Source: Patescibacteria group bacterium
GTDB lineage: Bacteria; Patescibacteriota; Minisyncoccia; Phycocordibacterales; Phycocordibacteraceae
DNA length: 43,654 bases
Direction of reading: 5' to 3'
NCBI GenBank assembly: GCA_028866135.1
Contig: JAGWIS010000003.1
Span: forward strand, 1 to 43,654
The notes below the pieces were generated by a model that worked only from the letters and a program-made list of their open reading frames with translations, was not told the DNA's origin and made no database searches. A program made the translations under genes and the position numbers. Of the stretch, positions 5,136 through 33,613 are shown piece after piece (within the stretch, counting starts at the first letter, position 1; every line of letters begins with the position of its first letter).

Positions 5136-6350
5136 ATGAAATTCCGCGCTGTCATACGCAAAGAAGGAGCGCCGGACTCCACCGTTATCATCGAAGCGCC
5201 TTCGCGCTTCGCCGTGTACGAGCAGGTGCAGAAGGAAGGAGGCGTCGTCGTGGAGCTCTTGGAGGGAACGGGCGGATTCAAGCTCCCCGCATGGCTCTCC
5301 TACAAAATCGGCACCGGCGTGAAGCGCGTCGAGATCATCCGGATGGCGAAGAATCTCTCCGCGATGCTCGGCGCGGGCCTTGCGCTTTCGCGCGCGCTTT
5401 CGGTCATCGAGCGGCAATCGGGCAATAAGCACCTGAAAGCGATCGTCGCGAGTCTCGCCGAATCGATCAGGAAAGGTTCTTCTTTCCATGAAAGCCTGGC
5501 TGCGTATCCGAAAGTGTTTCCCGAACTCTTCGTGGCGATGGTGCGTTCGGGTGAGGAATCCGGAGGTCTTTCCGATTCGCTTACGATCGTCGGGGTCCAG
5601 ATGGAGCGTTCGGAAGAGCTCATCCGGAAGATCAAAGGCGCGATGATCTATCCGTCTATCGTCATTACGGCCGTCCTCATCGTCGGTATCCTGATGCTCA
5701 TCTACGTCGTGCCGACCCTGACTGCGACCTTCACTCAGCTCGGCGTCGAGGTGCCGCTTGCAACACAAATCATCGTCGCGATCTCGAATTTCATGGTCGG
5801 GAACGTGACGCTCGTCTTCACCGGCATCCTCGCGCTTATCGCCCTCAGCATCGCCTTCGTCCGCTCGAAGCGCGGGAGCGCGATCGTGCTTGCCGTCGCC
5901 CTTCACCTGCCCGTCATCGGCGAGCTCGTGCGCGAGACGTACACCGCGCGCGCCGCACGCACCCTTTCCTCGCTCCTCGCTTCCGGCGTACCGGTGCTCG
6001 ATGCCCTCTCCATCACCAAAGCGGTGGTGCGTGCAAACGCCTTCGCGAACGTGATCGCGGAAGCTGAGGAGCGCGTGAAGAAGGGCGAGCCGCTCTCGCT
6101 CTCCTTCGCCGAGCACACGAATCTCTATCCCATCCTCATGAGCGATATGCTCACGGTGGGTGAGGAGACCGGCAAAGTCTCGGAAATGCTGAAGCAGATC
6201 GCGGAATTCTACGAGGAGGATGTGGCTGAGCGGACGAAAGATCTCTCCACGATCATCGAGCCGCTCCTCATGCTTCTCATCGGCACCGTCGTCGGCATCT
6301 TCGCCGTCTCGATGATCGCGCCGATTTACTCGCTCTCTTCCGCCTTCTAG
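5136..6350 (+). CDS. pilC: Type IV pilus/T2SS inner-membrane platform protein (PilC/GspF)
   Basis: Two GspF repeats (GEESGGL; GEETGKV..ML), AMIYP, IIEPLLM; ATG 1 nt after the pilB stop. Confidence 0.93.
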   Translation: MKFRAVIRKEGAPDSTVIIEAPSRFAVYEQVQKEGGVVVELLEGTGGFKLPAWLSYKIGTGVKRVEIIRMAKNLSAMLGAGLALSRALSVIERQSGNKHLKAIVASLAESIRKGSSFHESLAAYPKVFPELFVAMVRSGEESGGLSDSLTIVGVQMERSEELIRKIKGAMIYPSIVITAVLIVGILMLIYVVPTLTATFTQLGVEVPLATQIIVAISNFMVGNVTLVFTGILALIALSIAFVRSKRGSAIVLAVALHLPVIGELVRETYTARAARTLSSLLASGVPVLDALSITKAVVRANAFANVIAEAEERVKKGEPLSLSFAEHTNLYPILMSDMLTVGEETGKVSEMLKQIAEFYEEDVAERTKDLSTIIEPLLMLLIGTVVGIFAVSMIAPIYSLSSAF

Positions 6351-6351
6351 C

Positions 6352-6879
6352 ATGAGGCCGTTTCGAGGAGCTCCCCATACACCAGCTTCGGCATCATGGT
6401 CTTTGCGCCGAGTGCCGCAGACCGTATTCGCGTGCCCGCAGGAAATATCAGGTGCCCGGGGAGAAACGCGCGAGACCACGCGCGGCGCAATGCCGAAGCT
6501 GGTGTCTGGGTTCAGTCTCATCGAAGTCATCGTCTCGATCTTCATCATGAGCGTCATCCTGCTCCTCTTCCAGGCGCTCGTCAGGAGCAGCGTGCTCGTG
6601 CGCACGTCGAAAGATCAGGGGATCGCGCTCGCGGTCGTCAGGAACGAGCTCGAGACGCTGCGTGCAAACGGCTACGCAGCGCTTCCGGCAAGCGGTTCGT
6701 TTTCGGACAGCTTGCTCGGCACGCTTCCGCCCGCGACGACTGCGACCCTCTCTGTGAGCGTGCTAAATGCGCAAACGAAACAAGTCTCGGCGAGTGTCGT
6801 GTGGAGAGAGCCGGGCGCCGCCGCATCGAGCACCGTCTCGCTCTCCACACTCATTACTCAGAATGGCGGCCTTCCATGA
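6352..6879 (+). CDS. Minor type IV pilin (PilV-like) whose prepilin leader carries an in-frame palindromic insert; alternative start 6490
   Basis: G|FSLIE prepilin cleavage motif followed by a hydrophobic helix; ATG 1 nt after the pilC stop. Confidence 0.85.
   Translation: MRPFRGAPHTPASASWSLRRVPQTVFACPQEISGARGETRETTRGAMPKLVSGFSLIEVIVSIFIMSVILLLFQALVRSSVLVRTSKDQGIALAVVRNELETLRANGYAALPASGSFSDSLLGTLPPATTATLSVSVLNAQTKQVSASVVWREPGAAASSTVSLSTLITQNGGLP
6374..6510. mobile_element. MITE-like palindromic element in the prepilin leader
   Basis: 21-bp inverted repeat CCCATACACCAGCTTCGGCAT (6374-6394) / ATGCCGAAGCTGGTGTCTGGG (6490-6510), 1 mismatch. Confidence 0.75.
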
Positions 6880-7445
6880 CGCGCCTCTTTCAATCCGCGG
6901 CACGCGCGTTCACGCTTCTTGAAACGATGATCGTCATCGCGCTTGCCGCCGGCATGATGACCACGCTCGGCTTCCTTATCTACAATTTCAATGGCACCTC
7001 GGCGTACGAGCAGACGCTCTCGCAATCATCCGGCTCCGCAAGCGCGGTTCTGCGCGAAGTGGAATCGCTCGTGCTGCCGGCCGATGCGGTACTCCAGACG
7101 CATACGTTTTCAAGCACGACGTATACCTCCACCTCGACCTCGATCGTCCTCGAAATCCCCTCTATCGACAGTTCCGGAAACGTCATTTCAAGCACCTATG
7201 ACTATGCGGCGTTTTATACATCCGGCACGAACGCGTACCGCCTTCTTCAGGCAAACGCGTCGAGCAAACGAGCGTCAGGGACGAAACTGCTCAGTTCGAG
7301 CGTAAAAACGCTCACGTTCTCCTACAACAATACCGACTTCACTAAAGTGAGCAGCACCACCGTCGACATCCAGACGCAGGCGCAGGTAAAGCAGAACACC
7401 GTCTCCGATCACCGGCGCGAGCAGATGCGCCTGCGCAACTACTAA
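6876..7445 (+). CDS. Minor type IV pilin (PilW/PulJ-like)
   Basis: MTRLFQSAARA|FTLLE plus hydrophobic helix; ATGA overlap with the upstream gene. Confidence 0.85.
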   Translation: MTRLFQSAARAFTLLETMIVIALAAGMMTTLGFLIYNFNGTSAYEQTLSQSSGSASAVLREVESLVLPADAVLQTHTFSSTTYTSTSTSIVLEIPSIDSSGNVISSTYDYAAFYTSGTNAYRLLQANASSKRASGTKLLSSSVKTLTFSYNNTDFTKVSSTTVDIQTQAQVKQNTVSDHRREQMRLRNY

Positions 7446-11173: not shown

Positions 11174-11198
11174 GCAGTGAGTATACAATAGCGTGCAC

Positions 11199-12992
11199 AT
11201 GTTTCCGCTCCACGATCCTTTGCACGAGACGGTGCGCGAAGAACTTTCTTTCTACGATGACCTTACCGCCGCGCTTCTTGCGCGCCGCGGCGTCCTGAGC
11301 AGGGAGGAGGCGGAAAAATTTCTCAATCCCTCATACGATTTGCATCTCCATGATCCGTTCCTAATGGTAGACATGGAGAAGGCGGCGCGGCGATTGTCTC
11401 ACGCGATCCTTTCCGGAGAGCGCATCGGCGTGTGGAGCGATTACGATTGCGATGGCATACCGGGCGGAGTGCTCATGCACGATTTCCTCGCGAAAGCGGG
11501 CGCAAATTTCGAAAATTATATTCCGCACCGGCACGAAGAAGGTTATGGGATGAATGTTGCCGGCATCGAGAAGCTCGCGAAAAGCGGAGTGAAGCTCATC
11601 GTGACGGTCGACTCCGGCATCACGGACGTCGAGCCCATCGCTCGAGCGAACGAGCTCGGCATGGAAGTCATCGTCACGGATCACCACCTGCCTGCCGAAA
11701 AACTGCCGGACGCGTTTGCAATCCTCAACCCGAACGCTCGTCCCGTTAGAGGCAAGATGCCGGAGGCATCTGGCTCGCCTTCGGCGAGCGCCTCTAACGG
11801 GACGAGAGCGGAGGAAACGTATCCGTTTAAGAGTCTCTGCGGCTCGGGCGTCGCGTGGAAGCTCGTGTGCGCGACGCTTGCGGCGGCGCCCGCGCTTCGC
11901 GAGCGGGTGCCTGAGGGATGGGAAAAGTGGCTTCTCGACATGGTGGGGCTCGCGACCATCGCCGACATGGTCCCGCTCACGGGCGAAAACCGCGTTCTTG
12001 CCGCTTACGGCCTCCTCGTGATGCGCAAATCCCCGCGCATCGGGCTGCAGAAACTCTGCCGAGGGATGCGCGTTGATCAGCGCAAGCTCACCGAAGATGA
12101 CGTCGGATTCATGATCGCGCCGCGCATAAACGCGGCAAGCCGCATGGGGTCGGCGGAGGACGCCTTCCGCCTCTTCACGACTGACTCTGAAAGCGAGGCG
12201 GATTTGCTTGCGAAGAAGCTGGAGAAAATGAATCGCACGCGCAAAGCGGAGGCGGGCACCATCACGCGAGCGGTGCATGCGCGACTGAAAGAGAAGGGCG
12301 CGGTCAGAAGCGTCATCGCGCTCGGAGATCCGGAGTGGCGCCCGGCGCTCCTCGGGCTCGTCGCCAATACCATTGCGGATGAGTACGAGCGGCCCGTATT
12401 CCTTTGGGGCAGGGAGGGGAATATGCGCCTCAAGGGATCGGTGCGAAGCGGCGGCGGGGTGCACATCCTCGAGCTCATGCGCGCCACGGAAAACACCTTC
12501 ACCGAATTCGGCGGGCACAGAGCGGCGGGCGGTTTCACCGTCGAAGACACTGCGGTGTTCTTTCTTGAAGACCGCCTGGTCGAAGCACACGGGAAAATGC
12601 AAAAAGAAGAAGCGGATGATGATTTACTGATGCGCGCTGACGCCGTGGTCGCACCGGAAGAGATAACTGATGCTTTTCTTACAAAAATCGAACGTCTTGC
12701 CCCATTTGGCATGGAGAACCCAAAACCCGTGTTTCTTTTGCGAGAGGTTTTCGTGCGCCGGATTTCACATTTCGGGAAAGGAGAGGAGCACTTGAAATTG
12801 AATGTGTGTTCAAGAGAGGAAAGCGAATCCGGCATCGATGCCGTTACGTTTTTCGCGAAAGGCCCGCTTGCGCGCGTCGCGGAGACGCTTGCCGCAAATA
12901 GTCGCGCACATCTGCTCGCGCACATCGAGCGCGACACGTTTTCGCGCGAGAATCCGGTGCGTCTGCGACTTCTCGATCTCAGAGTTGCATGA
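11199..12992 (+). CDS. recJ: Single-stranded DNA exonuclease RecJ (alternative GTG start 11193)
   Basis: DYDCDG, TVDSG, TDHH, TIADMVPL, PRINAASR, GSVRS, FGGH.AAGG, PFGMENP. Confidence 0.95.
   Translation: MFPLHDPLHETVREELSFYDDLTAALLARRGVLSREEAEKFLNPSYDLHLHDPFLMVDMEKAARRLSHAILSGERIGVWSDYDCDGIPGGVLMHDFLAKAGANFENYIPHRHEEGYGMNVAGIEKLAKSGVKLIVTVDSGITDVEPIARANELGMEVIVTDHHLPAEKLPDAFAILNPNARPVRGKMPEASGSPSASASNGTRAEETYPFKSLCGSGVAWKLVCATLAAAPALRERVPEGWEKWLLDMVGLATIADMVPLTGENRVLAAYGLLVMRKSPRIGLQKLCRGMRVDQRKLTEDDVGFMIAPRINAASRMGSAEDAFRLFTTDSESEADLLAKKLEKMNRTRKAEAGTITRAVHARLKEKGAVRSVIALGDPEWRPALLGLVANTIADEYERPVFLWGREGNMRLKGSVRSGGGVHILELMRATENTFTEFGGHRAAGGFTVEDTAVFFLEDRLVEAHGKMQKEEADDDLLMRADAVVAPEEITDAFLTKIERLAPFGMENPKPVFLLREVFVRRISHFGKGEEHLKLNVCSREESESGIDAVTFFAKGPLARVAETLAANSRAHLLAHIERDTFSRENPVRLRLLDLRVA
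11737..11806. mobile_element. In-frame palindromic insert in recJ (CCCGTTAGA family)
   Basis: Perfect 17-bp inverted repeat CTCGTCCCGTTAGAGGC / GCCTCTAACGGGACGAG enclosing two 7-bp hairpins. Confidence 0.85.
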
Positions 12993-13000
12993 CGCTTCTC

Positions 13001-13043
13001 CCCAACAAGGGTGCCCCTTGTAGCAAGGGGCACCCTTGTTGGG
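13001..13043. repeat. Perfect 20-bp hairpin built from two self-palindromic CAAGGG-N3-CCCTTG units
   Basis: CCCAACAAGGGTGCCCCTTG-tag-CAAGGGGCACCCTTGTTGGG. Confidence 0.85.
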
Positions 13044-18648: not shown

Positions 18649-18790
18649 CATGCCCGGTATGACTACATGGCGTCGTGTCTTTGCTCCAAGGGTCGATTGG
18701 GGTAATGAGAGTATTGTGTCCTTTGCGCGATATGCGTGTTGCGTGGCCGCAGACACGGGGAGCAACGCCATGTTGTCATAATCGGGTATG
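18649..18790. mobile_element. Palindromic element (CCCGG...GGCGTCG family, copy 1) with ATG on both sides
   Basis: About 25-bp imperfect inverted repeat CATGCCCGGTATGACTACATGGCGT / ACGCCATGTTGTCATAATCGGGTATG. Confidence 0.75.
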
Positions 18791-33437: not shown

Positions 33438-33467
33438 AAAAGTGGTATATGCTAGCATTCTACCACA

Positions 33468-33602
33468 CCCGGACAGTACAAAACGGCGTCGCTCTTCAGC
33501 ATAAAATGTGTCTCCTCTTGCATTGAGTGCATCATGCACTTCTCGCGCGAGTTCCACAATGGGCGGAAGAGCTTAAAAATGACGCCGTTTTGACATGCCG
33601 GG
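33468..33602. mobile_element. Palindromic element (CCCGG...GGCGTCG family, copy 2)
   Basis: CCCGG / CCGGG, CAAAACGGCGTC / GACGCCGTTTTG (12 bp) and GCTCTTC / GAAGAGC nested stems. Confidence 0.75.
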
Positions 33603-33613
33603 CATGGTTCTTC

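Follow-up and report, generated by a model that had tools for sequence, protein, structure and literature searches.

A hairpin repeat inserted in the leader of a Patescibacteria minor prepilin and a small GIY-YIG nuclease as its possible mover

Introduction

Rickettsia palindromic elements (RPEs), ERIC, QMITE1 and the Anabaena elements MITEb and MITEe are intragenic elements of the MITE type, according to the accessible text of two reports (PMC10969869, PMC3184786). The available account of Ssn places a GIY-YIG gene between hairpin repeats, accompanied by many gene-less NTS/SRM repeats in an IS-like architecture (Chenal et al. 2025, PMC11893778), and has the nuclease cutting single-stranded DNA near a hairpin (PMC11893778). 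Hydrophilic class III leaders are given as 6–26 residues in the available text of PMC4471445. In Geobacter sulfurreducens, PilA occurs as long and short prepilin isoforms, both reported in the accessible part of the source to be cut by PilD (PMC6201914). A search of titles and abstract openings in mainly open-access literature returned no such element described for Patescibacteria.

Here we analyze a locus of a Patescibacteria group bacterium in which a hairpin repeat interrupts the leader of a minor prepilin. The window, meaning the whole stretch of DNA analyzed, comprises 43,654 nucleotides, and the home genome (G000) measures 695 kb and is 97% complete. Its gene content, together with named CPR records in which this element also occurs, points to a Paceibacteria-like member of the Patescibacteria. 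In our preferred reading, to which we assign a probability of about 0.75, a hairpin repeat inserted at the Gly|Phe junction of the leader and rebuilt the cut site; translation probably still begins at the original ATG, and prepilin peptidase probably takes off the lengthened leader.

Results

Insertion at the prepilin cleavage site

The prepilin gene follows pilC after a 1-nt gap (pilC stop at 6348-6350, prepilin ATG at 6352), and this native ATG is likely translationally coupled to pilC. By reading alone, we take the ORF upstream of pilC to be pilB, giving a cluster pilB-pilC-pilin. The minor prepilin has 175 aa, comprising a 53-aa leader (6 ancestral and 47 inserted residues) and a 122-aa mature part. 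Both N_methyl (PF07963) and TIGR02532 matched residues 52-72 above their cut-offs; the class III signal features Gly(-1), Phe(+1), Glu(+5) and a hydrophobic stretch are present, and the home genome has a prepilin peptidase gene (C8:1660-1974 region). FSLIE starts at 6511, and 141 nt, or 47 codons (6370-6510), lie between it and MRPFRG. The element proper accounts for 137 nt of these (6374-6510) and a target-duplication slot for the remaining 4 nt. The features of the locus are:

5136-6350 (+): pilC, type IV pilus / T2SS F platform protein; PF00482 (T2SSF), E 3e-54
6352-6879 (+): minor prepilin gene; PF07963, TIGR02532, orthologues
6352-6369 (+): ancestral leader MRPFRG, six codons, native start; spacing shared with orthologue junctions
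6370-6373 (+): left slot of the 4-nt target duplication, decayed; 0/4 match with 6511-6514
6374-6394 (+): left arm, 21 nt; like most copies, it does not pair with the right arm at position 5
6395-6402 (+): inner segment a, pairs with a' (helix A)
6404-6410 (+): inner segment b, pairs with b' (helix B, crossing helix A)
6411-6472 (+): variable loop; 13/62 positions differ in a related allele
6473-6480 (+): inner segment a'
6483-6489 (+): inner segment b'
6490-6510 (+): right arm, exactly seven codons, the first ATG and the last GGG, the new Gly(-1)
6511-6514 (+): right copy of the 4-nt target TTCA, consisting of the Phe(+1) codon and the first base of Ser(+2)

An earlier note on this DNA, made from the sequence alone, had described a 141-bp insert with an inverted repeat that brings its own ATG and Gly(-1) codon into the leader. 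All of this was borne out. The arms match at 20 of 21 positions, the ATG at 6490 is in frame, and the GGG at 6508-6510 encodes Gly(-1). Deleting 6370-6510 yields MRPFRGFSLIE, and empty orthologues agree. The 0/4 match of the left slot counts against our reading, and its decay may reflect age.

Orthologues of the prepilin were found in 20 of 60 relatives, three weak matches being to another protein of greater length; with a stricter cut-off, they were found in 37 of 221 members of the genus. Junctions from the pilC stop to Gly(-1) were examined at 37 loci, with 33 parsed and 4 unparsed. The spacing had a mode of 19 nt and was no more than 45 nt in 26 of the 33 parsed junctions; exactly 19 nt (the 1-nt gap plus six codons) separated the two in 15 of 32 non-window junctions and 20 nt in two (L277 by eye). 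The window junction measures 160 nt, or 19 + 141. Because orthologous leaders are short, with a modal 19 nt versus 160 nt in the window, 6370-6510 is an insertion. The comparison of orthologous leaders that the earlier note had proposed revealed a short M-x-x-x-R-G start directly after the pilC stop, and the alternative start MPKLVSG in none of the 32 others. Contig pieces of sequencing runs X3 and X5 match this stretch of the window unchanged, X5, which may lie near the source, in one piece, and the insert is therefore no assembly artefact.

Most orthologues in the 33 parsed junctions are without any leader insert. Hairpin inserts occur in three other orthologous leaders: those of L025 and L281 lie at the same Gly|Phe, keep the frame and have different arm types, and that of L019, from the family of the window copy, lies at the prepilin start codon. 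TTYA is found in all three inserted orthologues, and Ser TCN in most orthologues (23/33 junctions).

Among eight prepilin-like genes found in the home genome, two more contain inserted hairpins with different arm types at Gly|Tyr/Phe, and another has a long leader in which Gly-Phe-Thr-Thr recurs and which may consist of nested relics; a similar leader is seen in L018. These three genes are:

C8:677 (-), C8:1417 (-) and C19:78632 (-): prepilin-like genes of the home genome

A palindrome family with a 4-nt target duplication

A genome scan recovered related palindromes, of which 11 seed copies were aligned; two more lie in the window and one on contig C30, and the home genome holds about 13 family copies. 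The 11 aligned copies have 21-nt arms, loops of unrelated sequence, and short conserved segments adjoining each arm. Arms vary between copies and are complementary within a copy: 89.5% of cells were paired, and 14 of 21 arm pairs showed two-sided changes. Arm position 5 was unpaired in 10/11 seed copies and in 26/31 independent copies. BLAST of the element against its own genome gave short arm or inner matches only; the loop is therefore no copy of another locus in that genome, and a spacer or guide reading of the loop found no support from this search.

With a covariance model, the family was found in 20 of 100 genomes of the same taxonomic family, with patchy counts (31 candidates scored per genome; 1-21 hits per positive genome, both strands counted). 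The further copies in the window are:

18649-18790 (+): second family copy, located at a start codon (211-aa ORF; duplication CATG/TATG); covariance model E 8e-15
33464-33606 (-): further family copy, weak; E 4e-6

Target duplication was counted in 69 of the 82 model hits, the other 13 being without CCC/GGG ends. It was perfect (4/4) in 31/69 copies versus 0.4% of shifted controls, and at least 3/4 in 47/69 versus 7.6%. The duplicated target is 4 nt long, follows Y-N-N-R loosely and shows little preference in its flanks; it reads TTYA at pilin sites.

Several unusual forms were also seen. In the more distant genome of L127 (G153), the model gave 93 hits counted on both strands. Most are intergenic, their ends are TCCG/CGGA and their duplications A/T-rich, and they represent a recent expansion. 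Two 213-nt copies (L072:1049-1265 and 1501-1721) have an extra internal right arm, as nested or tandem forms. Two palindromes of other kinds lie in the window: a 70-nt palindrome of another arm type (11737-11806), which adds a short peptide in frame within a 599-aa ORF (11193-12992) that we take to be RecJ-like, and a 43-nt perfect palindrome (13001-13043) across the ends of two ORFs, presumably RecJ-like and RNase H-like, of a type that recurs near Y1 transposase genes of the home genome.

Location of copies

Among the 82 hits in the home family, 29 lie at start codons and one, the seed itself, at a pilin Gly|Phe. At start codons the duplicated YATG restores the start, and 25 copies are co-oriented with the gene versus 4 opposite. 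Copies abut tRNA 5' ends at L030, L063, L092, L098 and L106, others are intergenic, and two lie inside rRNA genes of the home genome (L031:197-340 in 23S, L032:197-344 in 16S). Length is a multiple of three in 28/65 non-pilin copies and in 9/41 host-matched ones, consistent with no length constraint.

Targeting of pilin genes was considered and rejected. In addition to the single pilin-site copy among 82, genomes picked for having a pilin-site copy placed only 1 of 49 further copies at such a site (59 hits less 8 skipped and 2 duplicates; 4 mis-anchored). Pilin leaders are thus one tolerated site of several and not a preferred one. They are reachable because Gly-Phe-Thr codons contain TTYA, and the cut site is rebuilt because the arm ends in GGG.

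In three genomes (L030, L063, L092), a copy with the same flank stands directly 5' of a tRNA, which is tRNA-Phe in L063 and L092. One 4-nt site is filled in two genomes (L033, L088) by different arm types in opposite orientation, and is a recurrent insertion site; the gene downstream is presumably topoisomerase-I-like. Copies of 68-73 nt are apparently in frame inside non-pilin protein genes (L089:701-776, L260:401-481), and L232 has a tandem pair at a pilin site.

Crossed inner helices

Segments a and b, which follow the left arm, pair in crossed order with a' and b', which precede the right arm. Among 81 copies held out from the model, both helices had at least 5 Watson-Crick pairs in 46 (57%), versus 4.3% of chimeric, cross-copy pairs and 0.6% of shuffles. 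Nested pairing of the inner segments was rejected at 2.5%. With linkers of 0-2 nt, helices A and B plausibly do not form together with the outer stem; read from this geometry, they would be alternative extensions of it. In the window copy, helix B is predicted to be more stable than helix A.

The predicted RNA fold of 6365-6520 has -73.5 kcal/mol (z = -3.99), and 0/200 shuffles were equally stable. Predicted fold energies are alike on both strands, and arm mismatches show no G-U bias toward the transcribed strand (17 G-T vs 16 A-C). This strand symmetry is more in keeping with a DNA-level structure that can act on either strand than with a regulator acting as RNA. Differences between L030 and L092 are compensatory in arm and helix A, and the structure may have been kept in place after insertion.

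A divergent allele

The same variant allele of the window copy was present on one contig each in runs X10 and X3, from two studies and at low depth. Its 19 substitutions all fall within 6374-6510, with 0 in 93 flanking bases (p 4e-5). The variant contains neither indel nor stop; of the 15 codons that changed, 12 are non-synonymous (12 amino-acid changes); and two of seven helix-B pairs are lost. Judged from these substitutions, the inserted peptide appears free in sequence and kept in frame, which is what one would expect of a disposable leader. So dense a cluster of changes suggests a loop that is hypermutable or patch-converted; in 12 near-identical locus pairs elsewhere, the elements are identical.

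Probable translation across the element

Pilin-site copies were collected with a pattern consisting of the right arm followed by Gly|Phe-[TS]-x-x-Glu. Of 57 hits (19 from GTDB, 38 from metagenomes), 13 were dropped, 7 as chance matches and 6 as truncated or without a left arm, leaving 44 with both arms and 31 unique pilin-site copies. Target duplication was 4/4 in 27 of the 31 and at least 3/4 in every one. Of the 24 long copies, 14 keep the pilin frame open from end to end of the element, where shuffling of the interior predicts 1.1; the other two frames were open in one copy each. Non-pilin copies had an open frame in 14/65 (p 0.002), or 7/41 when host-matched (p 0.001); since kinship was ignored, these p values overstate the significance. 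Pilin-site copies are not independent: some come from the same genome or have in common an ATG at -17 codons, and they may have been passed between pilin paralogues. The elements of L119 and L124 break the frame, but a change upstream compensates, and the first ATG still reads through. The excess of open frames thus argues for selection for translation from the old start and, in turn, for toleration of a long leader.

The earlier note had further proposed that prepilin peptidase removes the inserted peptide, which would make the leader a safe harbor. Such a safe harbor is likely, given the indirect support from selection on open frames at other pilin sites. Cleavage after Gly we infer from those frames combined with known class III chemistry, as given in the accessible part of PMC4471445.

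An alternative that we consider unlikely is that the old leader was cut off and pilin is made from the element's ATG at 6490, with the short leader MPKLVSG and no long cleavage. The right arm spans exactly seven codons, which puts its ATG in frame with Gly|Phe in every copy. A leader of 53 residues, from 6352, is twice as long as the range of 6-26 and counts against our reading; from 6490 it would have 7 residues, inside that range. Use of two starts, with 10- and 29-residue leaders, is also described for Geobacter PilA in the available text of PMC6201914. Furthermore, 10 of the 24 long copies are closed by a stop or a shifted frame, yet the downstream pilin frame is intact where visible, and some must therefore start inside the element. 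However, such a restart does not predict the excess of open frames. In addition, all 10 closed copies contain a further in-frame ATG within the loop, in most cases 17 codons upstream of the arm ATG. Loop ATGs at -13 to -19 codons were more frequent in pilin-site copies (15/24) than in host-matched other copies (9/41; p 0.002), which suggests that the arm ATG alone is a poor start, although the enrichment may reflect shared descent. The window copy itself is in frame and open, has no loop ATG, and keeps the 1-nt coupling to pilC, and its ATG at 6490 is predicted to be buried (unpaired probability 0.15/0.04/0.00). Because of these properties, read-through from 6352 is likelier in the window copy than a start at 6490, although the open frame is weak evidence on its own here, where all three frames are open and the chance of an open frame in this GC-rich sequence is 37%.

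Considerably less probable is domestication as a regulator, in which the stem is kept for sequestering the inner ATG and tuning pilin, perhaps by a switch between helices A and B. The very stable fold, the frequency of both crossed helices in held-out copies and the predominant co-orientation of start-codon copies with their genes are features that such a role could draw on. Against it, most copies, rRNA and intergenic ones included, begin their right arm with an ATG, and the same fold is found in rRNA, tRNA-adjacent and intergenic copies, hence is a property of the element. This comparison gives no support for anything in the inner ATG or the stem being specific to pilin, and the suggestion in the earlier note that the stem could tune pilin levels is unsupported, with most orthologues lacking the insert. 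The balance of G-T and A-C mismatches and the loss of helix-B pairs in the related allele also speak against regulation. Least credible is removal from RNA, as of an intron or IVS, to restore the short leader: the long stem joins the ends, copies do lie inside 16S and 23S rRNA genes, and precise loss of 141 nt gives back the ancestral leader, but Rfam returned nothing at 6000-7000 (and, at 12 other copy-bearing loci, only host rRNA/tRNA and three sub-threshold matches), with no intron or ribozyme match, and excision would leave the interior under no coding constraint, which does not agree with a depletion of stops confined to the pilin frame.

A GIY-YIG gene between family arms

Versions of the family about 300 nt long carry, between the same arms, a small GIY-YIG gene (87 aa, PF01541) whose product matches UPF0213 structures in the PDB. 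In the home genome, 5 of 7 single-domain GIY-YIG genes lie between CCC/GGG inverted repeats; one (C29:1163-1468, 306 nt) lies within arms of the pilin-leader hairpin family, 70 nt from a short copy. The two arm types of the pilin-leader family occur at 10 of 30 related GIY-YIG loci, in several cases together with 4-nt duplications; the arms in other GIY-YIG clades are those of other hairpin types from these genomes. Arm types track the protein tree, with 5 changes versus 12.2 when shuffled (0/200). Since arms and gene are linked, this agreement indicates a unit moving together, not catalysis. Short copies were present in 8 of 9 other genomes with GIY-YIG cassettes versus 20/100 overall. Of the six closest cassettes, three are interrupted by a stop within the stretch that was matched. 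Inverted repeats of a different type flank one GIY-YIG gene of the home genome (C30:5384-5734).

The home genome has five Y1 transposases and one rve integrase, none flanked by arms of the pilin-leader family; DDE_Tnp_1 (PF01609), IS1595 (PF12762) and RVT_1 were not found in this 97% complete assembly. GIY-YIG genes were the only genes seen between family arms, with none of PF01609, PF12762, RT, rve or Y1. Judged by shared ends and co-occurrence among kin, the GIY-YIG protein somewhat more probably than otherwise mobilizes the hairpin family. We know of no demonstration of nuclease-only transposition.

Discussion

The pilin-leader hairpin is best explained as a non-autonomous element that would be mobilized in trans by the GIY-YIG protein. 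This protein may recognize a folded single strand and cut with a 4-nt stagger, with host repair finishing the event. Gly-Phe-Thr/Ser codons would offer TTYA, the terminal GGG of the arm would become Gly(-1), and the duplicated TTYA would supply Phe(+1). Because arm and duplication restore these two residues, the mature pilin would be unchanged. Copies are predicted to persist where the duplication regenerates a downstream feature, such as a start codon, a tRNA 5' end or a pilin cut site, and also where the hairpin is tolerated, as in rRNA. Translation of the window copy would begin mainly at the coupled ATG at 6352, with no more than a minor share from the buried ATG at 6490. For the long precursor, both the choice of start and the cleavage are deduced from sequence.

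A broader proposal, which we offer as tentative and would not ourselves bet on, is that the hairpins are non-autonomous members of undescribed minimal transposons whose sole protein is a GIY-YIG nuclease of about 85 aa. The nuclease might read a folded strand whose outer stem can be extended by either crossed helix, presenting the same shape on top and bottom strands, and cut with a 4-nt stagger. Its action might make the loop hypermutable, in line with the 19 changes inside the element and 0 in 93 flanking bases between the two alleles, and pilin leaders might serve as a recurrent reservoir for new leader peptides and start codons.

On its own, the pilin case is a curiosity, probably with no effect on the mature protein. 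Its wider interest lies in how selfish DNA fares in genomes of about 0.7 Mb with little spare room, where an element end together with a 4-nt duplication rebuilds the interrupted feature. The frame statistics provide an argument, drawn from DNA alone, that leaders with 50 residues or more are acceptable to prepilin peptidase, and they account for many oddly long pilin N-termini in Patescibacteria. If the GIY-YIG protein is the mover, this would be a transposase-free insertion system whose protein is among the smallest known in that role.

Comparison with described systems reveals partial likeness to each. As in the available account of Geobacter PilA, one pilin gene has two in-frame starts with leaders of different length; unlike here, that case involves no mobile element, and its leaders are 10 and 29 residues versus 7 and 53. 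The imperfect hairpin with a conserved mismatch resembles those of REP/RAYT and IS200/IS605 (Y1 HUH) systems, as far as accessible descriptions go, and fits recognition of folded single-stranded DNA. REP/RAYT and IS200/IS605 systems, however, are not known to make a target duplication, and Y1 genes of the home genome adjoin other, short palindromes. With Ssn, to judge from the available text, the family shares a single-domain GIY-YIG gene of similar size (about 90 aa; here 87 aa) flanked by repeats. Unlike Ssn, the SRM motif was found neither in the pilin-leader element nor in any of 30 GIY-YIG loci, long terminal arms with 4-nt duplications enclose the gene or loop, and structure matches are to UPF0213.

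Judged as a MITE, the element has 21-nt terminal inverted repeats, a short non-coding core, a length of 137 nt, a 4-nt duplication (decayed in the window copy), filled and empty orthologous sites, and several dispersed copies; its ends were shared with no IS of a known transposase among the types checked (PF01609, PF12762, RT, rve, Y1). Inverted ends with target duplication are likewise reported in accessible text for the intragenic MITEs ERIC, QMITE1 and Anabaena MITEb/e. RPEs, as described in the parts of the literature available, come closest in being palindromic, multi-copy, about 140-150 nt long, and in frame in protein genes where they are read through, as the hairpin here probably is. 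The pilin-leader hairpin differs from both RPEs and MITEs in its copy-variable, compensated arms, its crossed helices, and a GIY-YIG rather than a DDE partner. Finally, whereas the accessible descriptions of RPEs have a conserved peptide that stays in the protein, inserted peptides here differ between copies except at their arm-coded ends and likely leave with the leader.
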